DNA from: Octopus sinensis
Lineage: Eukaryota
Reading direction: 5' to 3'
NCBI RefSeq assembly: GCF_006345805.1
Contig: NC_043020.1
Span: forward strand, 5,642,001-5,706,000
DNA: 64,000 nt
Part shown: positions 13,756 through 53,908 of the stretch, in pieces
How positions within the stretch are numbered: position 1 is the stretch's first letter
Layout of the letters: every line of letters starts with the position of its first letter
The notes under the pieces: model-generated
What the model was told of the DNA's origin: nothing
Database searches by the model: none
The model's input: the letters and a program-made list of their open reading frames with translations, nothing else
Position numbers and translations under genes: made by a program

Positions 13756-15457
13756 TATTTCTTTACTGCCCCCCAAGGGGCTAAACATAGAGGGGACAAA
13801 CAAGGACAGACAAACGGATTAAGTCGATTATATCGACCCCAGTGCGTAACTGGTACTTAATTTATCGACCCCGAAAGGATTGAAAGGCAAAGTCGACCTC
13901 GGCGGAATTTGAACTAAAAACGCTATGGCAGACGAAATACCTATTTCTTTACTACCACACAAGGGCAAACATAGAGGGGACAAACAAGGACAGACAAACG
14001 GATTAAGTCGATTATATCGACCCCAGTGCGTAACTGGTACTTAATTTATCGACCCCGAAAGGATTGAAAGGCAAAGTCGACCTCGGCGGAATTTGAACTA
14101 AAAACGCTATGGCAGAGACGAAATACCTATTTCTTTACTACCCACAAGGGGCTAAACATAGAGGGGACAAACAAGGACAGACAAACGGATTAAGTCGATT
14201 ATATCGACCCCAGTGCGTAACTGGTACTTAATTTATCGACCCCGAAAGGATTGAAAGGCAAAGTCGACCTCGGCGGAATTTGAACTAAAAACGCTATGGC
14301 AGACGAAATACCTATTTCTTTACTACCCACAAGGGGCTAAACATAGAGGGGACAAACAAGGACAGACAAACGGATTAAGTCGATTATATCGACCCCAGTG
14401 CGTAACTGGTACTTAATTTATCGACCCCGAAAGGATTGAAAGGCAAAGTCGACCTCGGCGGAATTTGAACTAAAAACGCTATGGCAGACGAAATACCTAT
14501 TTCTTTACTACCCACAAGGGGCTAAACATAGAGGGGACAAACAAGGACAGACAAACGGATTAAGTCGATTATATCGACTCCCAGGGCGTAACTGGTACTT
14601 AATATATCGACCCCGAAAGGATTGAAAGGCAAAGTCGACCTCGGCGGAATTTGAACTAAAAACGCTATGGCAGACGAAATACCTATTTCTTTACTACCCA
14701 CAAGGGGCTAAACATAGAGGGGACAAACAAGGACAGACAAACGGATTAAGTCGATTATATCGACCCCAGTGCGTAACTGGTACTTAATTTATCGACCCCG
14801 AAGGATTGAAAGGCAAAGTCGACCTCGGCGGAATTTGAACTAAAAACGCTATGGCAGACGAAATACCTATTTCTTTACTACCCACAAGGGGCTAAACATA
14901 GAGGGGACAAACAAGGACAGACAACGGATTAAGTCGATTATATCGACCCCAGTGCGTAACTGGTACTTAATTTATCGACCCCGAAAGGATTGAAAGGCAA
15001 AGTCGACCTCGGCGGAATTTGAACTAAAAACGCTATGGCAGACGAAATACCTATTTCTTTACTACCACAAGGGGCTAAACATAGAGGGGACAAACGGAAT
15101 TAAGTCGATTATATCGACCCCAGTGCGTAACTGGTACTTAATTTATCGACCCCGAAAGGATGAAATGAAGGCAAAGTCGACTCGGCGGAATTTGAACTAA
15201 AAACGCTATGGCAGACGAAATACCTATTTCTTTACTACCCACAAGGGGCTAAACATAGAGGGGACAAACAAGGACAGACAAACGGATTAAGTCGATTATA
15301 TCGACCCCAGTGCGTAACTGGTACTTAATTTATCGACCCCGAAAGGATTGAAAGGCAAAGTCGACCTCGGCGGAATTTGAACTCAGAACGTAGCGACAGA
15401 CGAAATACGGCTACGCATTTCGCCCGGCGTGCTAACGTTTCTGCCAGCTCACCGCCC
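13756..15457 (-). repeat. Tandem array of nine SINE-M tail-B units (~185-bp period) with a single 5' head
   Basis: The head ggcggtgagctggcagaaacgttagcacgccggg occurs only at ~15457-15410. The units are joined as ...gggtagtaaagaaata|ggtatttcgtctgcc. Confidence 0.92.
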
Positions 15458-21506: not shown

Positions 21507-22226
21507 ATTCTAGGCACAAGGCCCGTATTTTTGGAGAAGGAACCAGTTGATTAGATCGACCCAGTACGTAACTGGTTCTTACTTTATCGAACCCGAAAGG
21601 ATGAATGGCAAAGCCGACCTCAGCGGAATTTGAACTTAGAACGTAAAGACAGACGAAATACCTATTTCTTTACTACCCACAGAGGAGACAAACAAGGACA
21701 GACAAACGGATTAAGTCGATTACATCGACCCCAGTGCGTAACTGGTACTTAATTTATCGACTCCGAAAGGATGAAAGGCAAAGTCGACCTCGGCGGAATT
21801 TGAACTCAGAACGTAAAGACAGACGAAATACCTATTTCTTTACTACCCACAAGGGGCTAAACATAGAGGGGACAAACAAGGACAGACAAACGGATTAAGT
21901 CGATTATATCGACCCCAGTGCGTAACTGGTACTTAATTTATCGACTCCGAAAGGATGAAAGGCAAAGCCGACCTCGGCGGAATTTGAACTCAGACCGTAA
22001 CAGCAGACGAAATGCCGCTAAGCATTTCGCCCGACGTGTTAACGATTCTTATTTCTGTATTGCCCACAAGGGGCTAAACTCAGAGGGGACGAACAAGGAC
22101 AGACAAACGGATTAAGTCAATTATATCGACCCCAGTGCGTAACTTGAACTTAGAACGTAACGGCAGATGAAATGCCCGGTAAGCATTTCGCCCGGCGTGC
22201 TAACTATTCTGCCAGCTCGCCGCCTT
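21507..22226 (-). repeat. Nested SINE-M cluster: three tail-B units followed by one tail-A unit
   Basis: Junctions gggcaatacagaaata|agaatcgttaacacg (~22050) and gtagtaaagaaata|ggtatttcg (~21832 and ~21662). The terminal unit ends in the tail-A sequence gggccttgtgcctag. Confidence 0.88.
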
Positions 22227-22545: not shown

Positions 22546-22567
22546 GGATGCGAGCTGGCAGAAACGT
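22546..22567 (+). mobile_element. 5' stub of the SINE-M copy interrupted by the ORF1 array
   Basis: ggatgcgagctggcagaaacgt matches the SINE head ggcggcgagctggcagaaacgt. The SINE resumes at 38297. Confidence 0.8.
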
Positions 22568-22753
22568 CACCACTTCGTTTGACGTCGGTCGTGTTTTTTT
22601 ACGCTCTGTAAAATTCGGTAAAAAAGAACAAAAAGCGTTGTTGTTGTTGTGGAAATTCTGAACGGCGTTGACGCGGTTTCGCGTTTCGCTCGTTCAGCGC
22701 GTTAAACTTTTTTCTGTTTTGGCGGCCGTTTTCGGTCTGTCAGACAGAAGGAA

Positions 22754-24160
22754 ATGGACTATGAGTCTCTAACAGACTTGTCCACGACAGATGAGGAACT
22801 GGAACAGGCAATTGCAGTGAAGCTGATGGAGGAAAAGGCTGGAGTTTTCGAGTCTTTATCAGACTCGCCTACGTCTGAGAAGGAGCTAGAAATGGCAGCG
22901 AGGAATTTGGAAAAAAGCTGAGTTATACTTATGCCGGTGTAACCCGAAGCGGAAGAGAAAGGGGTCGACTTGGCCAAGCTACCAAGTTACCAGAAACACA
23001 TGAAAAAGGAAGCGGTGAGGTGGAACTATCACCGACACCCGGAGAAAAGAATGGTATGATAAGAGGACCATTGTTTACAGGGTGTGCGCAACGAAAGGAG
23101 AGGGTAGAAGTTGTATCCATGGAATGGATAGAGGAAGCCCTGCGAAGAACTGAGGAGGAAATAAATTTTCTGACTCGAGGATCCAAGTACGGGACCGTAG
23201 TTGTGCACTTTAAAAGTGAATCTGCAGCGAGGAAGATGGCAGCGAAGGCGGTGAAGTCGGAAAAGGTAACACTGTTACCTACGTATTTAAACAGGAGGAT
23301 TACACGAATAAGGGTGGAGGGAGTGCCACCAACGTGGAGGCAGAATGGATTGTGGCGGCTGTGATCAGCGGCCACGAGGACGAAGTGGATATTCTCCATG
23401 CCTCGGTTAAGTCCGAGGGCTGGAGAGGCGTAACAGTGGAGCTGAACGTACAGGCAGAGACCGAGGTACTGGTGGACCTGACGGAAAGCATCAGACTGGG
23501 AGAAGTGATCATGAGAGTGTGGGTGGAGGGCAGGGCTCCACGTTGTTACAAGTGTGGCCTGAGGGGTCACATAAGAGCCTTCTGCCCTCCCCCAGGGAAA
23601 GAAATGGATCCCGAACCAGAGAGAGAGAAGCAGAAACCAGAGGAGAAGGAAACAGAGGAAGAGAATACACAGAAATGGAAGGAAGCTGGAAGTAAGAGGA
23701 AGAGAAGAATACGTGGAAAAAAAATATATGAACTCCAATCCACCCCAAAACCACCCACGCCCTCTGAGTCCCACCCTATCCATGCAGACATTGAACCCAC
23801 CCCTCCCCCCCAACAAGAAAACAAAAGAAAAAAAAGAATACACACACACAAGAGATTGAATCGATATCAGGATCAGGCCGTACATTTGTACTATGACTGA
23901 ACAGAAGAAGTTAAAAGTCTAATGGAAGAGTATAAATGGTATGATGTTGGTGAGACTAGGTATGCTGTGATTGAAAAGAAGAACATAGGTGACTTTATGG
24001 TGATGTGTGAATGCGAGAATTGGGAGGTGAAAGATATAAGAATGAGCGATGAATTCGTGGAAAATATGGATGAGTATTTCGGAGTAAGAATGGATATGGA
24101 TTTGTTCGTATTGGCAAGGAACATTCAAGTGACTATGAAAAACAAAGGACAGGTAGTTGA
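22754..24160 (+). CDS. ORF1-like CCHC zinc-knuckle protein, unit 1 (several frameshifts)
   Basis: Collinear with unit 8 and retains CYKCGLRGHIRAFC. Many indels fall in homopolymer runs. Confidence 0.55.
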
Positions 24161-24505
24161 TGCTGACGGACGGGGCCGTTGGTATCGCTTTCATTTAATT
24201 ATCATTTTTTCGTTTAACAATTCATGTTCATAAAGTTTAATTATAATGTTATGTCCCCATGTTTCTTAGTGTCCCTTTCTGTGTCGCCCCTAGTGGGTAA
24301 TAAAGAAATAAGAAACGCCACCACTTCGTTTGACGTCGGTCGTGTTTTTTTACGCGCTCTGTAAAATTCGGTAAAAAAGAACAAAAAGCGTGGTTGTTGT
24401 TGTGGAAATTCTGAACGGCGTTGACGCGGTTTCGCGTTTCGCTCGTTCAGCGCGTTAACTTTTTTCTGTTTTGGCGGCCGTTTTCGGTCTGTCAGACAGA
24501 AGGAA

Positions 24506-25904
24506 ATGGACTATGAGTCTCTAACAGACTTGTCCACGACAGATGAGGAACTGGAACAGGCAATTGCAGTGAAGCTGATGGAGGAAAAGGCTGGATTTTC
24601 GAGTCTTTATCAGACTTGTCTGAGAAGGAGCTAGAAATGGCAGCAAGGAAATTGGAAAAGAAGCTGAGTTATACTTATGCCGTGTAACCAAGAAGGCGGA
24701 GAGAAAGGGGTCGACTTGGCCAAGCTACCAAGTTACCAGAAACACATGAAAAAGGAAAGCGGTGAGGTGGAACTATCACCGACACCCAGGAGAAAAGAAT
24801 GGTATGATAAGAGGACCATTGTTTACAGGGTGTTCGCAAACGAAAGGAAGAGGGTAGAAGTTGTAACCATGGAATGGATAGAGGAAGCCCTGCGAAGAAC
24901 TGAGGAGGAAATAAATTTTCTGACTCGAGGATCCAAGTATGGGACCGTAGTTGTGCATTTTAAAAGTGAATCTGCAGCGAGGAAGATGGCAGCGAAGGCG
25001 GTGAAGTCGGAAAAGGTAACACTGTTACCTACGTATTTAAACAGGAGGATTACACGAATAAGGGTGGAGGGTGCCACCAAACGTGGAGGCAGAATGGATT
25101 GTGGCGGCTGTGATCAGCGGCCACGAGGACGAAGTGGATATTCCCATGCCTCGGTTAAGTCCGAGGGCTGGAGAGGCGTAACAGTGGAGCTGAACGTACA
25201 GGCAGAGACCGAGGTACTGGTGGACCTGACGGAAAGCATCAGACTGGGAGAAGTGATCATGAGAGTGTGGGTGGAGGGCAGGGCTCCACGTTGTTACAAG
25301 TGTGGCCTGAGGGGTCACATAAGAGCCTTCTGCCCTCCCCCAGGGAAAGAAATGGATCCCGAACCAGAGAGAGAGAAGCAGAAACCAAGGAGAAGGAAAC
25401 AGAGGAAGAGAATACACAGAAATGGAAGGAAGCTGGAAGTAAGAGGAAGAGAAGAATACGTGGAAAAGAAAATAATATGGAACTCCAATCCACCCCAAAA
25501 CCACCCACGCCTCTGAGTCCCACCCTATCCATGCAGACATTGAACCCACCCGCTCCCCCCCAACAAGAAAACAAAAGAAAAAAAAGAATACACACACACA
25601 AGAGATTGAAATCGATATCAGGCCGTACATTTGTACTATGACTGAACAGAAAGAAGTTAAAAGTCTAATGGAAGAGTATAAATGGTATGATGTTGGTGAG
25701 ACTAGGTATGCTGTGATTGAAAAGAAGAACATAGGTGACTTTATGGTGATGTGTGAATGCGAGAATTGGGAGGTGAAAGATATAAGAATGAGCGATGAAT
25801 TCGTGGAAAATATGGATGAGTATTTCGGAGTAAGATGGATATGGAATTTGTTCGTATTGGCAAGGAACATTCAGTGACTATGAAAAACAAAGACAGGTAA
25901 GTGA
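24506..25904 (+). CDS. ORF1-like CCHC protein, unit 2 (frameshifted)
   Basis: Collinear with unit 8; fragments 24677-25516, 25267-25641 and 25638-25877 in the ORF track. Confidence 0.55.
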
Positions 25905-26247
25905 TGCTGACGGACGGGGCCGTTGGTATCGCTTTCATTTAATCATTTTTTCGTTTAACAATCCATGTTCATAAAGTTTAATTATAATGTTATATGTCCC
26001 CATGTTTCTTAGTGTCCCTTTCTGTGTCGCCCCTAGTGGGTAATAAAGAAATAAGAAACGCCACCACTTCGTTTGACGTCGGTCGTGTTTTTTTACGCTC
26101 TGTAAAATTCGGTAAAAAAGAACAAAAAGCGTGGTTGTTGTTGTGGAAATTCTGAACGGCGTTGACGCGGTTTCGCGTTTCGCTCGTTCAGCGCGTTAAA
26201 CTTTTTTCTGTTTTGGCGGCAGTTTTCGGTCTGTCAGACAGAAGGAA

Positions 26248-27650
26248 ATGGACTATGAGTCTCTAACAGACTTGTCCACGACAGATGAGGAACTGGAACA
26301 GGCAATTGCAGTGAAGCTGATGGAGGAAAAGGCTGGAGTTTTCGAGTCTTTATCAGACTTGTCTGAGAAGGAGCTAGAAATGGCAGCAAGGAATTCGGAA
26401 AAGAAGCTGAGTTATACTTATGCCGGTGTAACCAAGAAGGCGGAAGAGAAAGGGGTCGACTTGGCCAAGCTACCAAGTTACCAGAAACACATGAAAAAGG
26501 AAAGCGGTGAGGTGGAACTATCACCGACACCCAGGAGAAAAGAATGGTATGATAAGAGGACCATTGTTTACAGGGTGTTCGCAAACGAAAGGAAGAGGGT
26601 AGAAGTTGTAACCATGGAATGGATAGAGGAAGCCCTGCGAAGAACTGAGGAGGAAATAAATTTTCTGACTCGAGGATCCAAGTATGGGACCGTAGTTGTG
26701 CATTTTAAAAGTGAATCTGCAGCGAGGAAGATGGCGGCGAAGGCGGTGAAGTCGGAAAAGGTAACACTGTTACCTACGTATTTAAACAGGAGGATTACAC
26801 GAATAAGGGTGGAGGGAGTGCCACCAAATGTGGAGGCAGAATGGATTGTGGCGGCTGTGATCAGCGGCCACGAGGACGAAGTAGATATTCTCCATGCCTC
26901 GGTTAAGTCCGAGGGCTGGAGAGGCGTAACAGTGGAGCTGAACGTACAGGCAGAGACCGAGGTACTGGTGGACCTGACGGAAAGCATCAGACTGGGAGAA
27001 GTGATCATGAGAGTGTGGGTGGAGGGCAGGGCTCCACGTTGTTACAAGTGTGGCTGAGGGGTCACATAAGAGCCTTCTGCCCTCCCCCAGGGAAAGAAAT
27101 GGATCCGAACCAGAGAGAGAGAAGCAAAACCAGAGGAGAAGGAAACAGAGGAAGAGAATACACAGAAATGGAAGGGCTGGAAGTAAGAGGAAGAGAAGAA
27201 TACGTGAAAAGAAAATAATATGGAACTCCAATCCACCCCAAAACCACCCACGCCTCTGAGTCCCACCCTACCCATGCAGACATTGAACCCACCCGCTCCC
27301 CCCCAACAAGAAAACAAAAGAAAAAAAAGAATACACACACACAAGAGATTGAAAACGATATCAGGATGTACATTTGTACTATGACTGAACAGAAAGAAGT
27401 TAAAAGTCTAATGGAAGAGTATAAATGGTATGATGTTGGTGAGACTAGGTATGCTGTGATTGAAAAGAAGAACATAGGTGAGTTTATGGGGAGGTGTGAA
27501 AGGAAGAATTGGGAGGTGAAAGATATAAGAATGAGCGATGAATTCGTGGAAAACATGGATGAGTATTTCGGAGTAAGAATGGATATGGAATTTATTCGTA
27601 TTGGCAAAGAACATTCAAGTGACTATGAAAAACAAAGGACAGGTAAGTGA
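26248..27650 (+). CDS. ORF1-like CCHC protein, unit 3 (frameshifted after aa 269)
   Basis: ORFs 26248-27057 and 27366-27650 give the consensus N- and C-termini (MDYESL... and ...EKQRTGK*). Confidence 0.6.
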
Positions 27651-27992
27651 TGCTGACGGACGGGGCCGTTGGTATCGCTTTCATTTAATCATTTTTTCGT
27701 TTAACAATTCATGTTCATAAAGTTTAATTATAATGTTATATGTCCCCATGTTTCTTAGTGTCCTTTCTGTGTCGCCCCTAGTGGGTAATAAAGAAATAAG
27801 AAACGCCACCACTTCGTTTGACGTCGGTGTGTTTTTTTCGGCTCCTGAAAATTCGGTAAAAAAGAACAAAAAAGCGTTGTTGTTGTTGTGGAAATTCTGA
27901 ACGGCGTTGACGCGGTTTCGCGTTTCGCTCGTTCAGCGCGTTAAACTTTTTTCTGTTTTGGCGGCCGTTTTCGGTCTGTCAGACAGAAGGAA

Positions 27993-29396
27993 ATGGACTA
28001 TGAGTCTCTAACAGACTTGTCCACGACAGATGAGGAACTGGAACAGGCAATTGCAGTGAAGCTGATGGAGGAAAAGGCTGGAGTTTTCGAGTCTTTATCA
28101 GACTCGCCTACGTCTGAGAAGGAGCTAGAAATGGCAGCGAGGAATTTGGAAAGAAGCTGAGTTATACTTATGCCGGTGTAACCAAGAAGGCGGAAGAGAA
28201 AGGGGTCGACTTGGCCAAGCTACCAAGTTACCAGAACACATGAAAAAGGAAAGCGGTGAGGTGGAACTATCACCGACACCCAGGAGAAAAGAATGGTATG
28301 ATAAGAGGACCATTGTTTACAGGGTGTGCGCAAACGAAAGGAAGAGGGTAGAAGTTGTATCCATGGAATGGATAGAGGAAGCCCTGCGAAGAACTGAGGA
28401 GGAAATAAATTTTCTGACTCGAGGATCCAAGTACGGGACCGTAGTTGTGCACTTTAAAAGTGAATCTGCAGCGAGAAGATGGCAGCGAAGGCGGTGAAGT
28501 CGGAAAAGGTAACACTGTTACCTACGTATTTAAACAGGAGGATTACACGAATAAGGGTGGAGGGAGTGCCACCAAACGTGGAGGCAGAATGGATTGTGGC
28601 GGCTGTGATCAGCGGCCACGAGGACGAAGTGGATATTCTCCATGCCTCGGTTAAGTCCGAGGGCTGGAGAGGCGTAACAGTGGAGCTGAACGTACAGGCA
28701 GAGACCGAGGTACTGGTGGACCTGACGGAAAGCATCAGACTGGGAGAAGTGATCATGAGAGTGTGGGTGGAGGGCAGGGCTCCACGTTGTTACAAGTGTG
28801 GCCTGAGGGGTCACATAAGAGCCTTCTGCCCTCCCCCAGGGAAAGAATGGATCCCGAACCAGAGAGAGAGAAGCAGAAACCAGAGGAGAAGGAAACAGGA
28901 GAGAATCACAGAGAATGGAAGGAAGCTGGAAGTAAGAGGAAGAGAAGAATACGTGGAAAAGAAAATAATATGGAACTCCAATCCACCCCAAAACCACCCA
29001 CGCCCTCTGAGTCCCACCCTACCCATGCAGACATTGAACCCACCCCTCCCCCCAACAAAAAACAAAAGAAAAAAAAGAATACAAACACACAAGAGATTGA
29101 AAACGATATCAGGATGTACATTTGTACTATGACTGAACAGAAAGAAGTTAAAAGTCTAATGGAAGAGTATAAATGGTATGATTTGGTGAGACTAGGTATG
29201 CTGTGATTGAAAAGAAGAACATAGGTGAGTTTATGGGAAGGTGAAATGCGAGAATTGGGAGGTGAAAGATATAAGAATGAGCGATGAATTCGTGGAAAAT
29301 ATGGATGAGTATTTCGGAGTAAGAATGGATATGGAATTTGTTCGTATTGGCAAGGAACATTCAAGTGACTATGAAAAACAAAGGACAGGTAAGTGA
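27993..29396 (+). CDS. ORF1-like CCHC protein, unit 4 (frameshifted)
   Basis: Collinear with unit 8; fragments 28240-28497, 28479-29132 and 28763-29206. Confidence 0.55.
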
Positions 29397-29730
29397 TGCT
29401 GACGGACGGGGCCGTTGGTATCGCTTTCATTTAATCATTTTTTCGTTTAACAATTCATGTTCATAAAGTTTAATTATAATGTTCTATGTCCCCATGTCTT
29501 TTGGTGTCCCCTTCTGTGTCGCCCCTAGTGGGTAATAAAGAAATCACCACTTCGTTTGACGTCGGTTGTGTTTTTTTCGGCTCCTGAAAATTCGGTAAAA
29601 AAGAACAAAAAGCGGGGTTGTTGTTGTGGAAATTCTGAACGGCGTTGACGCGGTTTCGCGTTTCGCTCGTTCAGCGCGTTAAACTTTCTTCTGTTTTGGC
29701 GGCCGTTTTCGGTCTGTCAGACAGAAGGAA

Positions 29731-31136
29731 ATGGACTATGAGTCTCTAACAGACTTGTCCACGACAGATGAGGAACTGGAACAGGCAATTGCAGTGAAGC
29801 TGATGGAGGAAAAGCTGGAGATTTCGAGTCTTTATCAGACTTGTCTGCGTCTGAGAAGGAGCTAGAAATGGCAGCAAGGAAATTGGAAAAGAAGCTGAGT
29901 TATACTTATGCCGGTGTAACCAAGAAGGCGGAAGAGAAAGGGGTCGACTTGGCCAAACTACCAAGTTACCAGAAACACATGAAAAAGGAAAGCGGTGAGG
30001 TGGAACTATCACCGACACCAGGAGAAAAGAATGGTATGATAAGAGGACCATTGTTTACAGGGTGTTCGCAACGAAGGAAGAGGGTAGAAGTTGTAACCAT
30101 GGAATGGATAGAGGAAGCCCTGCGAAGAACTGAGGAGGAAATAAATTTTCTGACTCGAGGATCCAAGTATGGGACCGTAGTTGTGCATTTTAAAAGTGAA
30201 TCTGCAGCGAGGAAGATGGCGGCGAAGGCGGTGAAGTCGGAAAAGGTAACACTGTTACCTACGTATTTAAACAGGAGGATTACACGAATAAGGGTGGAGG
30301 GAGTGCCACCAAACGTGGAGGCAGAATGGATTGTGGCGGCTGTGATCAGCGCCACGAGGACGAAGTAGATATTCTCCATGCCTCGGTTAAGTCCGAGGGC
30401 TGGAGAGGCGTAACAGTGGAGCTGAACGTACAGGCAGAGACCGAGGTACTGGTGGACCTGACGGAAAGCATCAGACTGGGAGAAGTGATCATGAGAGTGT
30501 GGGTGGAGGGCAGGGCTCCACGTTGTTACAAGTGTGGCCTGAGGGGTCACATAAGAGCCTTCTGCCCTCCCCCAGGGAAAGAAATGGATCCCGAACCAGA
30601 GAGAGAGAAGCAGAAACCAGAGGAGAAGGAAACAGAGGAAGAGAATACACAGAAATGGAAGGAAGCTGGAAGTAAGAGGAAGAGAAGAATACGTGGAAAA
30701 GAAAATAATATGGAACTCCAATCCACCCCAAAACCACCCACGCCCTCTGAGTCCCACCCTATCCATGCAGACATTGAACCCACCCGCTCCCCCCCAACAA
30801 GAAAACAAAAGAAAAAAAAGAATACACACACACAAGAGATTGAAATCGATATCAGCCGTACATTTGTACTATGACTGAACAGAAAGAAGTAAAAGTCTAA
30901 TGGAAGAGTATAAATGGTATGATGTTGGTGAGACTAGGTATGCTGTGATTGAAAAGAAGAACATAGGTGACTTTATGGTGATGTGTGAATGCGAGAATTG
31001 GGAGGTGAAAGATATAAAGAGCGATGAATTCGTGGAAAATATGGATGAGTATTTCGGAGTAAGAATGGATATGGAATTTGTTCGTATTGGCAAGGAACAT
31101 TCAAGTGACTATGAAAAACAAAGGACAGGTAAGTGA
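29731..31136 (+). CDS. ORF1-like CCHC protein, unit 5 (frameshifted)
   Basis: Fragments 29841-30368, 30326-30874 and 30900-31136. Confidence 0.55.
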
Positions 31137-31479
31137 TGCTGACGGACGGGGCCGTTGGTATCGCTTTCATTTAATCATTTTTTCGTTTACAATTCATGTT
31201 CATAAAGTTTAATTATAATGTTATATGTCCCCATGTTTCTTAGTGTCCTTTCTGTGTCGCCCCTAGTGGGTAATAAAGAAATAGAAACGTCACCACTACT
31301 TCGTTTGACGTCGGTTGTGTTTTTTTCGGCTCCTGAAAATTCGGTAAAAAAGAACAAAAAGCGTGGTTGTTGTTGTGGAAACTCTGAACGGCGTTGACGC
31401 GGTTTCGCGTTTCGCTCGTTCAGCGCGTTAAACTTTTTTCTGTTTTGGCGGCCGTTTTCGGTCTGTCAGACAGAAGGAA

Positions 31480-32888
31480 ATGGACTATGAGTCTCTAACA
31501 GACTTGTCCACGACAGATGAGGAACTGGAACAGGCAATTGCAGTGAAGCTGATGGAGGAAAAGGCTGGAGTTTTCGAGTCTTTATCAGACTTGTCTGAGA
31601 AGGAGCTAGAAATGGCAGCAAGGAATTCGGAAAAGAAGCTGAGTTATACTTATGCCGGTGTAACCAAGAAGGCGGAAGAGAAAGGGGTCGACTTGGCCAA
31701 GCTACCAAGTTACCAGAAACACATGAAAAAGGAAAGCGGTGAGGTGGAACTATCACCGACACCCAGGAGAAAAGAATGGTACGATAAGAGGACCATTGTT
31801 TACAGGGTGTTCGCAAACGAAAGGAAGAGGTAGAAGTTGTAACCATGGAATGGATAGAGGAAGCCCTGCGAAGAACTGAGGAGGAAATAAATTTTCTGAC
31901 TCGAGGATCCAAGTATGGGACCGTAGTTGTGCATTTTAAAAGTGAATCTGCAGCGAGGAAGATGGCGGCGAAGGCGGTGAAGTCGGAAAAGGTAACACTG
32001 TTACCTACGTATTTAAACAGGAGGATTACACGAATAAGGGTGGAGGGAGTGCCACCAAACGTGGAGGCAGAATGGATTGTGGCGGCTGTATCAGCGGCCA
32101 CGAGGACGAAGTAGATATTCTCCATGCCGGTTAAGTCTGAGGGCTGGAGAGGCGTAACAGTGGAGCTGAACGTACAGGCAGAGACCGAGGTACTGGTGGA
32201 CCTGACGGAAAGCATCAGACTGGGAGAAGTGATCATGAGAGTGTGGGTGGAGGGCAGGGCTCCACGTTGTTACAAGTGTGGCCTGAGGGGTCACATAAGA
32301 GCCTTCTGCCCTCCCCCAGGAAAGAAATGGATCCCGAACCAGAGAGAGAAGCAGAAACCAGAGGAGAAGGAAACAGAGGAAGAGAATACACAGAAATGGA
32401 AGGAAGCTGGAAGTAAGAGGAAGAGAAGAATACGTGGAAAAGAAAATAATATGGAACTCCAATCCACCCCAAAACCACCCACGCCCTCTGAGTCCCACCC
32501 TATCCATGCAGACATTGAACCCACCCCACCCGCTCCCCCCCAACAAGAAAACAAAAGAAAAAAAAGAATACACACACACAAGAATTGAATCGATATCATA
32601 TCAGGCCGTACATTTGTACTATGACTGAACAAAAGAAGTTAAAAGTCTAATGGAGAGTATAAATGGTATGATGTTGGTGAGACTAGGTATGCTGTGATTG
32701 AAAAGAAGAACATAGGTGACTTTATGGTGATGTGTGAATGCGAGAATTGGGAGGTGAAAGATATAAGAATGAGCGATGAATTCGTGGAAAATATGGATGA
32801 GTATTTCGGAGTAAGAATGGATATGGAATTTGTTCGTATTGGCAAGGAACATTCAAGTGACTATGAAAAACAAAGGACAGGTAAGTGA
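31480..32888 (+). CDS. ORF1-like CCHC protein, unit 6 (frameshifted)
   Basis: Fragments 31480-31833, 31845-32114, 32124-32588 and 32694-32888. Confidence 0.55.
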
Positions 32889-33235
32889 TGCTGACGGACG
32901 GGGCCGTTGGTATCGCTTTCATTTATAATCATTTTTTCGTTTAACAATTCATGTTCATAAAGTTTAATTATAATGTTATATGTCCCCATGTTTCTTAGTG
33001 TCCCTTTCTGTGTCGCCCCTAGTGGTAATAAAGAAATAAGAAACGCACCACTTCGTTTGACGTCGGTCGTGTTTTTTTACGCTCTGTAAAATTCGGTAAA
33101 AAAGAACAAAAAGCGTGGTTGTTGTTGTGGAAATTCTGAACGGCGTTGACGCGGTTTCGCGTTTCGCTCGTTCAGCGCGTTAAACTTTTTTCTTTTTTGT
33201 TTTGCGGCCGTTTTCGGTCTGTCAGACAGAAGGAA

Positions 33236-34637
33236 ATGGACTATGAGTCTCTAACAGACTTGTCCACGACAGATGAGGAACTGGAACAGGCAATTGCAGT
33301 GAAGCTGATGGAGGAAAAGGCTGGAGTTTTCGAGTCTTTATCAGACTTGTCTGAGAAGGAGCTAGAAATGGCAGCAAGGAAATTGGAAAAGAAGCTGAGT
33401 TATACTTATGCCGGTGTAACCAAGAAGGCGGAAGAGAAAGGGGTCGACTTGGCCAAGCTACCAAGTTACCAGAAACACATGAAAAAGGAAAGCGGTGAGG
33501 TGGAACTATCACCGACACCCAGGAGAAAAGAATGGTATGATAAGAGGACCATTGTTTACAGGGTGTGCGCAAACGAAAGGAAGAGGGTAGAAGTTGTATC
33601 CATGGAATGGATAGAGGAAGCCCTGCGAAGAACTGAGGAGGAAATAAATTTTCTGACTCGAGGATCCAAGTACGGGACCGTAGTTGTGCACTTTAAAAGT
33701 GAATCTGCAGCGAGGAAGATGGCAGCGAAGGCGGTGAAGTCGGAAAAGGTAACACTGTTACCTACGTATTTAAACAGGAGGATTACACGAATAAGGGTGG
33801 AGGGAGTGCCACCAAACGTGGAGGCAGAATGGATTGTGGCGGCTGTGATCAGCGGCCACGAGGACGAAGTAGATATTCTCCATGCCTCGGTTAAGTCCGA
33901 GGGCTGGAGAGGCGTAACAGTGGAGCTGAACGTACAGGCAGAGACCGAGGTACTGGTGGACCTGACGGAAAGCATCAGACTGGGAGAAGTGATCATGAGA
34001 GTGTGGGTGGAGGGCAGGGCTCCACGTTGTTACAAGTGTGGCCTGAGGGGTCACATAAGAGCCTTCTGCCCTCCCCCAGGGAAAGAAATGGATTCCGAAC
34101 CAGAGAGAGAGAAGCAGAAACCAGAGGAGAAGGAAACAGAGAAGAGAATACACAGAAATGGAAGGAAGCTGGAAGTAAGAGGAAGAGAAGAATACGTGGA
34201 AAAGAAAACAATATGGAACTCCAATCCACCCCAAAACCACCCACGCCCTCTGAGTCCCACCCTACCCATGCAGACATTGAACCCACCCGCTCCCCCCCAA
34301 CAAGAAAACAAAAGAAAAAAAAGAATACACACACACAAGAGATTGAAAACGATATCAGGATGTACATTTGTACTATGACTGAACAGAAAGAAGTTAAAAG
34401 TCTAATGGAAGAGTATAAATGGTATGATGTTGGTGAGACTAGGTATGCTGTGATTGAAAAAAGAACATAGGTGAGTTTATGGTGTGTGAAAGGAAGAATT
34501 GGGAGGTGAAAGATATAAGAATGAGCGATGAATTCGTGGAAAAGGATGAGTATTTCGGAGTAAGAATGGATATGGAATTTGTTCGTATTGGCAAAGAACA
34601 TTCAAGTGACTATGAAAAACAAAGGACAGGTAAGTGA
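33236..34637 (+). CDS. ORF1-like CCHC protein, unit 7 (frameshifts in the 3' third)
   Basis: Open from MDYESL through the knuckle to EEKETE (~34140), then shifts frame. Confidence 0.65.
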
Positions 34638-34979
34638 TGCTGACGGACGGGGCCGTTGGTATCGCTTTCATTTAATCATTTTTTCGTTTAACACATTCAT
34701 GTTCATAAAGTTTAATTATAATGTTATATGTCCCCATGTTTCTTAGTGTCCCTTTCTGTGTCGCCCCTAGTGGGTAATAAAGAAATAAGAAACGTCACCA
34801 CTTCGTTTGACGTCGGTGTGTTTTTTTCGGCTCCTGAAAATTCGGTAAAAAAGAACAAAAAGCGTGTTGTTGTTGTGGAAATTCTGAACGGCGTTGACGC
34901 GGTTTCGCGTTTCGCTCGTTCAGCGCGTTAAACTTTTTTCTGTTTTGGCGGCCGTTTTCGGTCTGTCAGACAGAAGGAA

Positions 34980-36396
34980 ATGGACTATGAGTCTCTAACA
35001 GACTTGTCCACGACAGATGAGGAACTGGAACAGGCAATTGCAGTGAAGCTGATGGAGGAAAAGGCTGGAGTTTTCGAGTCTTTATCAGACTCGCCTACGT
35101 CTGAGAAGGAGCTAGAAATGGCAGCGAGGAATTTGGAAAAGAAGCTGAGTTATACTTATGCCGGTGTAACCAAGAAGGCGGAAGAGAAAGGGGTCGACTT
35201 GGCCAAGCTACCAAGTTACCAGAAACACATGAAAAAGGAAAGCGGTGAGGTGGAACTATCACCGACACCCAGGAGAAAAGAATGGTATGATAAGAGGACC
35301 ATTGTTTACAGGGTGTGCGCAAACGAAAGGAAGAGGGTAGAAGTTGTATCCATGGAATGGATAGAGGAAGCCCTGCGAAGAACTGAGGAGGAAATAAATT
35401 TTCTGACTCGAGGATCCAAGTACGGGACCGTAGTTGTGCACTTTAAAAGTGAATCTGCAGCGAGGAAGATGGCAGCGAAGGCGGTGAAGTCGGAAAAGGT
35501 AACACTGTTACCTACGTATTTAAACAGGAGGATTACACGAATAAGGGTGGAGGGAGTGCCACCAAACGTGGAGGCAGAATGGATTGTGGCGGCTGTGATC
35601 AGCGGCCACGAGGACGAAGTAGATATTCTCCATGCCTCGGTTAAGTCCGAGGGCTGGAGAGGCGTAACAGTGGAGCTGAACGTACAGGCAGAGACCGAGG
35701 TACTGGTGGACCTGACGGAAAGCATCAGACTGGGAGAAGTGATCATGAGAGTGTGGGTGGAGGGCAGGGCTCCACGTTGTTACAAGTGTGGCCTGAGGGG
35801 TCACATAAGAGCCTTCTGCCCTCCCCCAGGGAAAGAAATGGATCCCGAACCAGAGAGAGAGAAGCAGAAACCAGAGGAGAAGGAAACAGAGGAAGAGAAT
35901 ACACAGAAATGGAAGGAAGCTGGAAGTAAGAGGAAGAGAAGAATACGTGGAAAAGAAAATAATATGGAACTCCAATCCACCCCAAAACCACCCACGCCCT
36001 CTGAGTCCCACCCTATCCATGCAGACATTGAACCCACCCGCTCCCCCCCAACAAGAAAACAAAAGAAAAAAAAGAATACACACACACAAGAGATTGAAAA
36101 CGATATCAGGATGTACATTTGTACTATGACTGAACAGAAAGAAGTTAAAAGTCTAATGGAAGAGTATAAATGGTATGATGTTGGTGAGACTAGGTATGCT
36201 GTGATTGAAAAGAAGAACATAGGTGAGTTTATGGGGATGTGTGAAAGCGAAGAATTGGGAGGTGAAAGATATAAGAATGAGCGATGAATTCGTGGAAAAC
36301 ATGGATGAGTATTTCGGAGTAAGAATGGATATGGAATTTATTCGTATTGGCAAAGAACATTCAAGTGACTATGAAAAACAAAGGACAGGTAAGTGA
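34980..36396 (+). CDS. ORF1-like (Tx1/L1-type) RRM + CCHC zinc-knuckle protein, unit 8, the best copy; ~471 aa after removing one extra base near 36248
   Basis: Acidic N-terminus, SYTYAGV motif, RRM-like YGTVVVHFKSESAARKM and RIRVEGVPPNVEAEWI, then RVWVEGRAPR-CYKCGLRGHIRAFC (CX2CX4HX4C). A basic/Pro linker (KRKRR) precedes an ~90-aa C-terminal region. ATG to consensus TGA is 1417 nt, i.e. 472 codons plus 1. Confidence 0.8.
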
Positions 36397-36739
36397 TGCT
36401 GACGGACGGGGCCGTTGGTATCGCTTTCATTTAATCATTTTTTCGTTTAACAATTCATGTTCATAAAATTTAATTATAATGTTATATGTCCCCATGTTTC
36501 TTAGTGTCCCTTTCTGTGTCGCCCCTAGTGGGTAATAAAGAAATAAGAAACGTTAGCACGTCGTTTGACGTCGGTTGTGTTTTTTTCGGCTCCTGAAAAT
36601 TCGGTAAAAAAGAACAAAAAGCGTGGTTGTTGTTGTGGAAATTCTGAACGGCGTTGACGCGGTTTCGCGTTTCGCTCGTTCAGCGCGTTAAACTTTTTTC
36701 TGTTTTGGCGGCCGTTTTCGGTCTGTCAGACAGAAGGAA

Positions 36740-38148
36740 ATGGACTATGAGTCTCTAACAGACTTGTCCACGACAGATGAGGAACTGGAACAGGCAATTG
36801 CAGTGAAGCTGATGGAGGAAAAGGCTGGAGTTTTCGAGTCTTTATCAGACTCGCCTACGTCTGAGAAGGAGCTAGAAATGGCAGCGAGGAATTTGGAAAA
36901 GAAGCTGAGTTATACTTATGCCGGTGTAACCAAGAAGGCGGAAGAGAAAGGGGTCGACTTGGCCAAGCTACCAAGTTACCAGAAACACATGAAAAAGGAA
37001 AGCGGTGAGGTGGAACTATCACCGACACCCAGGAGAAAAGAATGGTATGATAAGAGGACCATTGTTTACAGGGTGTGCGCAAACGAAAGGAAGAGGGTAG
37101 AAGTTGTATCCATGGAATGGATAGAGGAAGCCCTGCGAACTGAGGAGGAAATAAATTTTCTGACTCGAGGATCCAAGTACGGGACCGTAGTTGTGCACTT
37201 TAAAAGTGAATCTGCAGCGAGGAAGATGGCAGCGAAGGCGGTGAAGTCGGAAAAGGTAACACTGTTACCTACGTATTTAAACAGGAGGATTACACGAATA
37301 AGGGTGGAGGGAGTGCCACCAAACGTGGAGGCAGAATGGATTGTGGCGGCTGTGATCAGCGGCCACGAGGACGAAGTAGATATTCTCCATGCCTCGGTTA
37401 AGTCTGAGGGCTGGAGAGGCGTAACAGTGGAGCTGAACGTACAGGCAGAGACCGAGGTACTGGTGGACCTGACGGAAAGCATCAGACTGGGAGAAGTGAT
37501 CATGAGAGTGTGGGTGGAGGGCAGGGCTCCACGTTTGTTACAGTGTGGCCTGAGGGGTCACATAAGAGCCTTCTGCCCTCCCCCAGGGAAAGAAATGGAT
37601 CCCGAACCAGAGAGAGAGAAGCAGAAACCAGAGGAGAAGGAAACAGAGGAAGAGAATACACAGAAATGGAAGGAAGCTGGAAGTAAGAGGAAGAGAAGAA
37701 TACGTGGAAAAGAAAATAATATGGAACTCCAATCCACCCCAAAACCACCCACGCCCTCTGAGTCCCACCCTATCCATGCAGACATTGAACCCACCCGCTC
37801 CCCCAACAAGAAAACAAAAGAAAAAAAAGAATACACACACACAGAGATTGAAAACGATATCAGGATGTACATTTGTACTATGACTGAACAGAAAGAAGTT
37901 AAAAGTCTAATGGAAGAGTATAAATGGTATGATGTTGGTGAGACTAGGTATGCTGTGATTGAAAAGAAGAACATAGGTGAGTTTATGGGGAGGTGTGAAA
38001 GGAAGAATGGGAGGTGAAAGATATAAGAATGAGCGATGAATTCGTGGAAAACATGGATGAGTATTTCGGAGTAAGAATGGATATGGAATTTATTCGTATT
38101 GGCAAAGAACATTCAAGTGACTATGAAAAACAAAGGACAGGTAAGTGA
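36740..38148 (+). CDS. ORF1-like protein, unit 9 (425 aa open, late frameshift, knuckle locally shifted)
   Basis: ORF 36740-38017. Compensating indels change RCYKC to RLLQC. Confidence 0.7.
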
Positions 38149-38296
38149 TGCTGACGGACGGGGCCGTTGGTATCGCTTCATTTAATCATTTTTTCGTTTA
38201 ACAATTCATGTTCATAAAATTTAATTATAATGTTATATGTCCCCATGTTTCTTAGTGTCCCTTTCTGTGTCGCCCCTAGTGGGTAATAAAGAAATA

Positions 38297-38870
38297 AGAA
38301 ACGTTAGCACGCCGGGTGAAATGCTTAGTGGTATTTCGTCTGCCATTACGGTCTGAGTTCAAATTCCGCCGAGGTCGACTTCGCCTTTCATCCTTTCGGG
38401 GTCGATAAATTAAGTACCAGTTATGCACTGGTGTCGATATAATCAACTTAATCCGTTTGTCTGTCCTTGTTTGTCCTCTCTGTGTTTGGCCCCTTGTGGG
38501 TAGTAAAGAAATAGAAATTTCTGACTGCCGTTACGTTGTGAGTTCAAATTCCGCCGAGGTCGACCTTGCCTTTCATCCTTTCGGCGGTCGATTAAATAAG
38601 TACCAGTTACGCACTGGGGTCGATGTAATCGACTTAATCCGTTTGTCTGTCTTCGTTTGTCCTCTCTATGTTTAGCTCCTTGTGGCTAGTAAAGAAATAG
38701 GTATTTCGTCTGCCGTTACGTTCTAAGTTCAAATTTCGCCTAGGTCGACTTTGCCTTTCATCTTTTCAGGATCGATAAATTAAGTACCAGCTAAAAATTT
38801 GGGTCGATGTAATCGACTTACCCTCGCCCTCGTAACTGTGGACCTTGTAACAAAAAATTTAAAGCCAATA
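38297..38870 (+). mobile_element. Remainder of the interrupted SINE-M: two tail-B units followed by a tail-A unit
   Basis: agaaacgttagcacgccgggtgaaatgc, B-box gagttcaaattcc and the SINE core. Tail-B ends lie at ~38513 and ~38699, and a tail-A-like end (gaccttgtaacaaaaaattt) at ~38860. Confidence 0.88.
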
Positions 38871-39042
38871 TAAAGATAGATTATGAGCGAGTTGAAAGAG
38901 AGGGAGGGGACTGAGTCTGCTTCCCTCCACCCCTGTTCCTTGGAATAGCTCAAAAATATGGAATTACTCTCGAAGCTGCTGTTTCAAGCTCTAATAAATA
39001 GACAAACTACTAGAAAAAAAGAAGTCGTTTTCACAGCTCAAA

Positions 39043-40164
39043 ATGGTTAAACGATTACCGTTACACATAGTGAATAGTATTTCTTGGATTTTGCAGCTGA
39101 TTTTATTTTCTTCATCAGTCGCTTTGATAATCTACTCTATCGCTAACGATGTCTGTGTATGTTCAGATGTAGGTTTGTTATGTGATCTAGACAGGCCACA
39201 TATCTACTACAATTGCTCTGCGGCAGGAAATCGACCGACTTTAGAAACTTGTCCGTCTGGGCAGCGATTCGATGTCTTTCGTGGAGTCTGCCTTCTTCCA
39301 TGTGATGTTGTCGAATGTTTGAAAGGGAGAGAGCTTCGTAAAAAATTTTATTTTCCAAATAAGTGTCGTTTTAATTTTTCTTCGCCATTATCGACTTCAT
39401 TTACGGAAAACTTGCAGAATGGGTGTTCTACAACTGCCACTGATGGTCAAAATTTATCCACTGCTGTTGATGTAAGTCCATCTAATTCGCTGACAAAGAA
39501 AATATTGACAAAGGTATCATTCGCAGACGACGATGTGGCTGTCAATCTTGTGAACTCCTCATACAACTTGTCCATACAAAATGATGACCAGTCGTTTCAG
39601 ATCGTCTCTGAGGAGTTAAAATTGAACGAAACTGCCACAGTCTCTCAACTCCTTCCCGTTAATAACCCAGCTAACACGACTAATGAATTGGAGACATTTA
39701 CCAGTCGTACTACGCCAACGTTGAAGTCGTTTACAAGAGAAAACCTATCAACAGAGAAGTCTCCCACTAACGTTACTCGAGCGGAATCAGTCCAACATGA
39801 ATTAAATTCTAAAGTCGAATCGAATTTGAGCCCCACCGAAGAAAACGGAGAGAAACGAAATCGAACTCAGTTTGAACCGTTGAATAATAGAACTGTTACT
39901 GCAAGAACAGGGACACCCCTATGGAAAGAGTTCGGTCTCCAGTCTCGTCAGCAACGAGATAAACTTGTGCAGCTGTGTAAACAAGGGTCGACATTTCTCT
40001 GCGATTCTTCGGACCGTTCAGTCTTTTACCGCTGCTTTAACAATCGGCCTTACCGCTACATTTGTCCAAAACCATTACTCTTCGATTCCAATATAAAAGA
40101 ATGTAGTCGCAATAAGAATGCGGTCTGTTTGCCGTCCATGGATTGGCGGCGTTTGGAAAAATAA
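39043..40164 (+). CDS. Secreted or membrane-anchored protein with two chitin-binding type-2 (peritrophin-A/CBM14-like) domains and a Ser/Thr-rich linker
   Basis: 373-aa ORF with a hydrophobic N-terminus. Two Cys motifs (C...IYYNC...TCPSGQRFDVFRGVC and C...VFYRCFNNRPYRYICPKPLLFDSNIKEC...C) flank an S/T/N/E-rich spacer. The start is uncertain because there is a possible splice acceptor, ttttgcag, at ~39096. Confidence 0.8.
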   Translation: MVKRLPLHIVNSISWILQLILFSSSVALIIYSIANDVCVCSDVGLLCDLDRPHIYYNCSAAGNRPTLETCPSGQRFDVFRGVCLLPCDVVECLKGRELRKKFYFPNKCRFNFSSPLSTSFTENLQNGCSTTATDGQNLSTAVDVSPSNSLTKKILTKVSFADDDVAVNLVNSSYNLSIQNDDQSFQIVSEELKLNETATVSQLLPVNNPANTTNELETFTSRTTPTLKSFTRENLSTEKSPTNVTRAESVQHELNSKVESNLSPTEENGEKRNRTQFEPLNNRTVTARTGTPLWKEFGLQSRQQRDKLVQLCKQGSTFLCDSSDRSVFYRCFNNRPYRYICPKPLLFDSNIKECSRNKNAVCLPSMDWRRLEK

Positions 40165-51934: not shown

Positions 51935-53908
51935 ACATCATCATCATCATCATCATCGTTTAGCGTCCGTTTTCCATGCTAGCATGGGTTGGACGGTTCT
52001 ACTGGGGTCTGTGAAGCCAGAAGGCTTCATCAGGCACCAGTCTGATCTGGCAGTGTTTCTACGGCTGGATGCCCTTCCTAACGCCAACCACTCCGTGAGT
52101 GTAGTGGGTGCTTTTTACGTGCCACCCGCACTGGTGCCAGACAGAGCTGGCAAACGGCCACGAACGGATGGTGCTTTTTATGTGCCACCGGCACGAGGGC
52201 CAGGCGAGGCTGGCAACGGACACGAAACGGGGCGGTTGCTGGCAACGGTCGCGAAACGGAAAGTTCTCTTACATGCCACCGGCACTGGTAACACATCTGC
52301 AATTTCCATTGATCGATTTCCATTGATCGATTTCGATTCTGATCCTCACTTGCCTCATCACGTCTTCACAAGTAGAGTTTTGTGTCCCAAGAAGGGAAGG
52401 TATGCATACGTAGGCTGGCTCCATCCCATGTAGAAGGCCACGGGTTATGGACTCACTTGTCCTGCCGGGTCTTCTCGCGCACAGCACACTTCCAGAGGTC
52501 TCGGTCTCTAGTCATTTCCTCAGTGAGACCTAAAGTTCGAAGGTCGTGCTTCACCACCTCGTCCCAGGTTTTCCTGGGTCTGCCTCTTCCACAGGTTCCC
52601 TCAACCGCTAGGGTGTGGCACTTTTTCACACAACTATCTTCATCCATTCTCGCCACATGACCATACCAGCGCAAACGTCTCTCTTGCACACCACAACTGA
52701 TGCTTCTTAGGTCCAGCTTTTCTCTCAAGGTACTTACACTCTGCCGAGTGTGAGTACCGGCATTACACATCCATCGGAGCATACTGGCTTCATTTCTAGC
52801 GAGCTTACGCATATCCTCAGCAGTCACGGCCATGTTTCACTGCCATGTAGCATGGCTGTTCGTACACACGCATCATACAGTCTGCCTTTCACTCTGTGCG
52901 AGAGGCCTTTTGTCACCAGTAGAGGTAAGAGCTCTCTGAACTTTGCCCAAGCTATTCTTACTCTAGCAGTTACACTTTCAGCACACCCGCCCCCGCTGCT
53001 GACTTGGTCACCTAGGTAACGGAAACTATCAACTATTTCTAGTTTTTCTCCCTGGAAAGTGACGGAAGTTGGTCTCAGAGCATTTTCAGTGTTTATTGTT
53101 CCTGAGCATCTGCCACATACAAAAACCATCTTCCTAGTTAACCTTCCTTTGACATTGCTGCATCTCTTATGTGTCCATAGCTTACACTTGGTGCATCTTA
53201 TAGAGTTTCTACCTACACCTTTTCTACAGATTGAGCAGGGCCATCTACCTGAAGGTGTTTGTGATTTGTCTACCTTCCTACTGATTACGACTTTGGTTTT
53301 AGCTAGATTGACTCTGAGGCCCTTCGATTCTAATCCTTGTTTCCACACCTGAAACTTCTCCTCCAGTTCTGATAGCGACTCAGCAATTAGAGCAAGGTCA
53401 TCAGCATAGAGGAGCTCCCAAGGGCATCCTGTCTTGAATTCCTCCGTTATTGCCTGGAGGACTATGATAAATAGGAGGGGGCTGAGTACTGAGCCTTGGT
53501 GGACTCCTACCTCTACCCGGAATTCTTCACTGTACACATTTCCAACCCTCACCCTACTAGCGGCGTCCCTGTACATGGCCCGCACAGCTCTCACTAACCA
53601 TTCATCTATCCCTAGTTTCCTCATTGCCCACCAGATAAGGGATCAGGGGACCCTGTCGAAGGCTTTCTCCATGTCAACAAAAGCCAGGTACAGGGGCTTA
53701 TCTTTGGCTAGGTATTTCTCCTGCAGCTGCCTTACCAGGAATATAGCATCAGTGGTACTTTTCCCTGGCACAAACCCAAACTGCATCTCATCTAAACTAA
53801 CTCTCTCTCTAATTAGTTGGGCTATGACCCTCTCCGTAACCTTCATCACCTGGTCCAACAGCTTGATACCTCTGTAGTTATTCCAACAGCTTGATACCTC
53901 TGTAGTTA
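51935..53908 (-). mobile_element. 5'-truncated RTE-clade LINE (RT with one stop and one frameshift, long 3' UTR, (ATG)n tail)
   Basis: Motifs QFGFVPGKSTTDAIF, AFVDMEKAFDRVP, GVHQGSVLSPLLF, LLYADD, FRYLGD, HGSETW, RRLRWYGHV and RGRGRPRKTW in ORFs 53643-53858, 52824-53624 and 52453-52833. Confidence 0.95.

Follow-up and report, generated by a model that had tools for sequence, protein, structure and literature searches.

An ORF1-only element and a SINE of Octopus sinensis as probable passengers of Tx1-like LINEs that insert at fixed sites in the SINE head

In the window, by which we mean the whole 64,000-nt stretch of Octopus sinensis DNA analysed here, an array of an ORF1-only element lies inside a SINE, and the element and the SINE end in similar 3' tails. 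Which enzyme moves these two elements, how did the SINE acquire its tail, and what brings both to the positions where they are found? We consider it quite likely, from comparison of the sequences, that the ORF1-only element and the SINEs with this tail (tail B) are passengers of the ORF2 protein of a Tx1-like clade of LINEs, because both end in the 3' tail of the clade and both insert at fixed sites in the SINE head.

A tandem array of nine 1.75-kb ORF1-only LINE units (22568–38296, plus strand; 96.9–99.1% identity to unit 8) interrupts a SINE head, with an 8-bp duplication on both flanks. The 5' remnant of the host head lies upstream of the array (22546–22559, plus strand) and is followed by the upstream copy of the duplication (22560–22567, plus strand), and the head resumes past the array at 38297, where the identical eight letters occupy 38297–38304. 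With one full SINE copy (L215:1299-1529) as the reference, the array sits at position 15, called site 1 (38297), and a second insertion site, site 2, is position 48 (38330). From site 1, the host SINE runs through the end of tail B (38297–38513, plus strand). A second, head-less tail-B unit follows (38514–38699, plus strand), joined at or near site 2 through an irregular junction, and then a site-2 remainder with a different tail, tail A (38700–38870, plus strand; 3' limit approximate). The host of the array is a SINE chain in the order tail B, tail B, tail A, and its last unit is, on the presumed order of events, likely the original host copy. Two other SINE chains were seen on the minus strand: one full tail-B copy with eight site-2 units (13756–15456), and a chain that ends in a tail-A unit and contains one junction at site 1 and two at site 2 (21549–22224). 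Directly past the host chain lies a 388-aa open frame with two matches to CBM_14 (chitin-binding; 38998–40164), and an RT fragment followed by a PHD-like finger at 52824–53642 (minus strand) represents another LINE type.

The first-pass annotation had described a shared tail of about 40 nt with a small stem-loop, and both tails were located where it had placed them, the element ending at 38295 and the SINE tail at 38512. The element tail (38254–38295, plus strand) matched tail B by BLASTN at 84.6% over 39 nt, and the local score of 46 was reached by none of 5000 dinucleotide shuffles (shuffle mean, 15.1). The similarity is real, but the length has to be corrected: tail B is about 62 nt long (38451–38512, plus strand), and the ORF1-only element matches only its 3' two thirds. 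The similarity does not come from target duplication, because the same tail terminates copies at unrelated sites. The same hairpin, with a 4-bp stem and a 5-nt loop, was present in the element (38272–38284) and in the SINE (38489–38501; both plus strand). In the element it is followed by a hexamer, 5 nt short of the element end, which may act as a poly(A) signal.

A covariation check of the stem had also been proposed, and its outcome was favorable. With RNAalifold, 25 tail segments gave a single 4-bp stem with a 5-nt loop; 82% of the stem cells were paired (17 of 96 unpaired), and the covariation score of 0.53 was not reached in any of 500 shuffles. Two-sided changes occurred at all four pairs, and registers slid along the alignment paired in 23–49%. 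The covariation appears to be good evidence for the stem but not independent evidence, because the rows are related LINE families and the stem register was taken from the SINE and set by anchoring on the element end. Within the SINE, the stem varies at the closing pair only (G-U/G-C). A lax free search for hairpins discriminated weakly (29 of 29 tails, 17.9 expected).

Tail A, carried by other copies of the SINE, had been called unrelated to tail B. This was borne out insofar as no significant similarity was detected, with 209, 264 and 717 of 2000 shuffles reaching the scores of its sub-tails; tail A is, however, not one tail but at least three, and by eye these sub-tails contain a small hairpin with the same loop as tail B. 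Among 16 tail-A matches without a clear SINE body in the fetched loci, none was a LINE carrying tail A.

If the SINE is moved by a LINE enzyme, as the first-pass annotation held, elements encoding an RT are expected to carry the tail, and several autonomous endonuclease-RT LINE families do terminate in it. They came from a zf-RVT search (150 of 24,042 candidates scored, ends read in 30 loci of these), from a protein search (150 of 16,989 scored, 30 loci read) and from 40 further fetched matches and later family searches; family letters (A, B, C through P) are labels of this analysis. Several of the families encode an ORF2 of 1,126–1,140 aa with endonuclease, RT and zf-RVT, and their tails are related and have no poly(A) (103 distinct ends). 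PF03372, PF00078 and PF13966 were above cut-off in all four ORF2 proteins tested (B1, A, C, D). The best PDB match of ORF2 was human L1 ORF2p (E 5e-68), one ORF2 homologue with 39% identity is named Transposon TX1 protein, and one is from Argonauta; the best named homologues of the ORF1 protein are from Octopus vulgaris. ORF1 of the Tx1 clade carries a CCHC zinc knuckle. Here zf-CCHC remained below cut-off (18.1 bits in the B1 ORF1, 13.7 in the window ORF1), with the motif visible in the alignment. The final 558 nt of ORF2 were used for a midpoint-rooted tree with 30 rows (each family represented by one to five), in which families A, B, C, E and P formed one clade (100/100), F, G, H, I, J and K another group, and D a third. 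The tail-bearing families likely belong to a Tx1-like clade.

Do these LINEs prefer particular targets? Kojima took more than 20% of copies at one target as the criterion for target preference (Kojima 2015, PMC4494074), and the shares here were 30 of 30 copies for E, 14 of 30 ends at the main target for B1, and about two thirds of 30 for P, while copies of family A were mostly dispersed. All 30 copies of family E, which were sampled by the 3' UTR alone (30 of 40 scored, 385 candidates), were inserted at SINE site 2, and the TSD was 16 bp. Nine copies of G lay at one site, and F and F4 at a common site. The flanks of B1 at its main target are 91–98% alike, and this group could be copies of one carrier repeat; 5'-truncated and tandem copies would speak for separate insertions, an argument on which we leaned little.

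G targets a single base in the head of another SINE family (L188, L190, L193, L194, L199, L200, L203, L204, L210), and we saw a B-tailed ORF1-only copy at that site and a tail-B SINE about two bases off (L318, L231). In a separate locus (L051 / L330:6159-6322; G000:C15, 29.05 Mb), a family-D LINE ends immediately ahead of a complete U1 snRNA sequence (RF00003, 125 bits); this single copy possibly represents a U1-targeting lineage or a source of U1 chimeras.

The ORF1-only element has a TSD and no RT. In unit 8, its ORF1 frame (34932–36287, plus strand; 451 aa stop to stop) has a weak CCHC knuckle and is 35% identical to the ORF1 of family B1. When the element was compared with the B1 copies at site 1, the first 84 nt were 85–86% identical and the last 32 nt 97%. 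B1 is likely its helper, because the two agree at 31 of these last 32 nt and because three B1 copies are found at the head of, or in, site-1 arrays alongside ORF1-only units, with a common 5' end. Twelve of 22 non-tandem 3' ends of the ORF1-only family were at site 1, and seven of the ten off this site start with its first three letters.

Tandem arrays are also formed by HeT-A. In three arrays (L064, L281, L289), two ORF1-only families that are 68% identical are interleaved, sometimes together with an autonomous unit, a pattern suggestive of serial insertion or template jumping. Another ORF1-only array, with a different junction tag, occupies a tag-like non-SINE site (L271-L272; G000:C6 70.55 Mb), and two single SINE heads contain an ORF1-only insertion at site 1 together with a full family-E LINE at site 2 (L061, L284; G000:C6 45.2 Mb and C4 118.8 Mb).

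That the SINE is mobilised by a LINE RT, so that a target became a passenger, was the central suggestion of the first-pass annotation, and the tail-B SINEs indeed share with these LINEs the TSD length, the precise end and the target sites. We counted 79,780 exact tail-B ends, of which 26,388 were followed by site 2 and 1,480 by site 1 (reversed-pattern controls, 0); the resulting share of about a third is approximate, as the junction patterns miss four leading letters. Among 40 single full-length tail-B copies, 16 had a TSD of 10–20 bp (median 15.5 bp) and one a simple repeat, and in 23 the TSD was not found; they had no poly(A). At loci not chosen for a junction, a site-1 or site-2 remainder came after 49 of 112 tail-B ends versus 3 of 57 tail-A ends, and over all loci 36 tail-A remainders were preceded by a tail-B unit.

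Dating of the subfamilies agrees with this order: copies with tail A host tail-B insertions and diverge more from their group majority (12.4%, n=83, a value inflated by the pooling of three sub-tails) than copies with tail B (5.4%, n=205). Given that tail-A remainders follow tail-B units and that divergence is greater in tail-A bodies, the family probably had tail A first, and by acquiring tail B it would have become a passenger of the LINEs that target it. Two plus-strand tail-A copies of one sub-type at L285 have site-1 junctions, and older SINE sub-families may have targeted themselves too. In the SINE head, Rfam and ARAGORN detected no tRNA, and there was no Rfam match up to E 10. The head and body presumably resemble the octopus SINEs OR1 and OR2. 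These two are regarded as tRNA-derived CORE SINEs (Ohshima and Okada 1994, cited in PMC4758252).

The abundance of chains raises the question of whether they are simply satellites produced by unequal recombination, the tail similarity being an old relic with no present role. SINE-derived satellites have been described in reptiles (PMC10702118), and some chains do have private variants in common. However, the dispersed junctions number tens of thousands and converge on a single base, which is also the insertion point of an active LINE family; tail-A remainders come after tail-B units, and the ORF1-only arrays mix 68%-identical families with autonomous units, and we regard this explanation as highly improbable. 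While the SINE as a passenger of the LINEs is the reading we prefer, long homogeneous chains such as 13756–15456 may have been extended by duplication of the DNA once the first unit had inserted.

Where did tail B come from? The first-pass annotation derived it from the lineage of the ORF1 element itself, possibly by a truncated insertion into the SINE; in this scenario the ORF1-only/B1 lineage, which targets the head, would have left its tail through a 5'-truncated insertion at the target. The tails are similar, the lineage does target site 1, and a second ORF1-only family is in the top five tails for two of three SINE copies. The comparison of all tails nevertheless speaks against this donor, since the window element ranked only 13th, 17th and 11th among 26 LINE-type tails against the three SINE copies. 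The last 27 nt of tail B scored best with A (44–49), compared with 34–38 for B and 38–42 for the second ORF1-only family; the first 36 nt are closest to LINE families F/G, scoring best with F111, F117 and both G tails (45–58), and B does not match them (11–18). The loop of tail B is that of A, C and part of P, while the loop of lineage B has one different base that is confined to B.

The position of the tail exchange is a further argument. Tail A and tail B part at reference position 164–168, which is 100–150 nt from sites 1 and 2 (positions 15 and 48), and an on-target truncated insertion, which would give a head and a tail without the body, therefore cannot have made tail B. Junctions at site 1, the site of this lineage, are also few (1,480) relative to those at site 2 (26,388). 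We consider this origin largely refuted and improbable. No sampled LINE tail (26 tails and 30 family-P copies) matched the whole of tail B, the best reaching 58–65 of 126. The simplest reading is that the donor stood near the base of the A/B/C/E/P clade and is extinct or unsampled, or that the tail is a recombined one. A route through off-target truncated insertion appears to exist: at L129, a 410-bp 5'-truncated family-P insertion interrupts a tail-A SINE at position 147 and is accompanied by a duplication of about 10 bp; a longer duplication with a shorter insert would yield a tail-B SINE. Only one of the 30 P copies showed this arrangement, and over the first 20 nt of tail B family P gives no match. 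With one copy in 30, position 147 was ruled out as a recurrent target of family P (a candidate site 3).

What decides between site 1 and site 2? The base closing the hairpin stem of the SINE (T or C; 38501 in the window) predicts the site. In the first 100 listed junctions at each site, scored by eye, site 1 had 89 C and 11 T and site 2 had 5 C and 95 T, against a background of 20 C among 100 unselected tail-B ends; in the fetched loci, the ratio of site 1 to site 2 was 29:5 for C and 4:112 for T. Off-target copies also tended to resemble the site of their own variant in at least four of five letters (12 of 24 C copies for site 1, 23 of 60 T copies for site 2; controls, 1–3%), although a few of them may be decayed remainders.

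One explanation of this pattern keeps the passenger relation and leaves the choice of site to the endonuclease alone, LINE families of different times having carried different SINE sub-families, with E or an older sister leading to site 2 and the site-1 group of B1 to site 1. We give it close to an even chance. According to Kojima (2015, PMC4494074), it is mainly the endonuclease that determines the target, and targets here mostly track the LINE lineage, as the counts for E, G, F and F4 given above show. Three site-1 B1 copies share G116N beside the active site, a change also found in B2, whose target starts with the same five letters as site 1. Divergence is slightly higher for the C variant (6.6%) than for the T variant (5.5%; p=0.006), which would make C slightly older, and helpers acting at different times could explain the variant, off-target and E-preference patterns; off-target sites that resemble the main site fit as well. 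The pairing of variants with helpers is, however, crosswise: family E, which uses site 2, has C in its tail like the SINE variant going to site 1, and B1 at site 1 has T like the variant going to site 2. Furthermore, B1 endonucleases that are 96–99% identical are found at three unrelated recurrent targets, and the B1 copy at L077 combines one group's diagnostic residues with another group's target. None of 36 non-tandem ORF1-only ends was at the main target of B1 despite identical last 27 nt, and one family-A copy lies at the target of F and one B-tailed ORF1-only copy at that of G.

These exceptions to an endonuclease-only rule turn attention to the RNA. In family E, 11 of 19 TSD pairs differed and 14 of the 15 differences were in the half adjoining the 5' end of the element (from 20 of the 30 copies, less one pair with an indel). 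Because the TSD copies differ mostly near the element 5' end although the copies are about 99% identical, this indicates that target sequence is present on the leader of the E RNA. Family E also favors heads with C at position 48 (19/30 vs 26/105, p=1.5e-4), while SINE dimers have C there in 1 of 63. The junction letter of E agreed with that of the host in 20 of 20 copies, as expected of a fixed cut; G was at the junction in 10 of 11 C-headed SINE dimers, a count confounded by the possibility that the head derives from the inserted RNA. At the other end of the ORF1-only element, transcripts would be predicted to read through into the duplicated target, because the putative poly(A) signal is only 5 nt before the element end.

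The RNA may thus bring along target sequence that sharpens the choice of site; we see this and the endonuclease acting alone as about evenly balanced, and the two models are not mutually exclusive. In its stronger form, which we rate as slightly less likely than not, the choice of target would be a heritable label on the RNA, whose flanks, the 5' leader included, would pair with the cut DNA and return each lineage to a site like that of its source. If this is true, sub-lineages with nearly the same enzyme would each retain an address of their own, as would the ORF1-only passengers and the SINE variants that differ by one base, and the SINE would be a self-targeting element that has inserted more than 26,000 times at a single base within its promoter region.

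Combining these observations, we propose that the small hairpin is likely the binding site of the ORF2 protein, which would copy the RNA where the target is cut. The older SINE would have replaced tail A with that of another clade member, early or unsampled and outside the ORF1-only/B lineage, by a template switch or an off-target truncated insertion near position 150–168. A new SINE copy, being homologous to its target, could anneal at the 5' junction and leave a complete copy followed by a head-less remainder, and repetition of this step would build the dimers and chains. The endonuclease would provide a short cut preference, which target sequence co-transcribed at the RNA ends would likely sharpen.

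This proposal would name the likely engine of a major SINE of the octopus genome, and self-targeting would explain why SINE dimers and chains, which annotation would divide among separate families, are so abundant. Should flanking RNA contribute to the choice of target, this would offer a testable account of the frequent target switching of Tx1 elements and a natural system of RNA-directed insertion; E and B1 are young, nearly identical families with long open frames. In O. vulgaris, 13 active L1-Tx1 families are listed by a 2026 annotation, which leaves SINEs mostly unclassified and in whose main text the words 'target', 'partner' and 'nested' do not occur. Our literature searches returned no description of this SINE/LINE system, and the families may be deposited in Repbase or SINEBase.

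The closest parallel in target use is SINEU/Tx1-Mar of crocodilians, in which SINEs and Tx1 LINEs share a target within Mariner at two positions and stack in tandem around the TSD (Kojima 2015, PMC4494074). As there, the target shared here is inside a repeat, is used at two positions and accumulates tandem stacks. Unlike there, where the target is an unrelated Mariner and the account reports no LINE with the SINEU-1 3' end, the target here lies in the head of the SINE itself, and SINE and LINEs have a tail in common. In tail recognition, the system is like the L1-clade LINE/SINE pairs of maize, sorghum and Chlamydomonas, which have about 45–80 nt of 3' end in common (Ohshima 2012, PMC3472496; 2013, PMC3747384): an L1-group LINE and a SINE share a 3' end with a covarying hairpin, and in tail B the sharing is beyond chance and compensatory stem changes are present. 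Such shared hairpin tails were rare in the survey consulted, with three cases, and an animal Tx1-like case with about 80,000 exact copies would extend stringent recognition to the Tx1-like group.

The window element is, in turn, comparable to the bipartite LINEs HAL1, HeT-A and Ag-Sponge, which have ORF1 only and the 5' and 3' ends of an autonomous partner (PMC5786205). It likewise has ORF1 only and the ends of such a partner; it differs from them in being derived from Tx1-like LINEs, in hitting a SINE head and in the low identity of its ORF1 to that of B1. For R1Bm, SART1Bm and R2, accurate priming has been attributed to presumed annealing between the cut strand and a target-like RNA end (PMC7265360), and Kojima noted that co-transcription with the target can strengthen specificity (Kojima 2015, PMC4494074). 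In R1Bm, SART1Bm and R2 the endonuclease and the target are fixed, whereas here nearly identical enzymes and non-coding passengers appear to inherit different targets.
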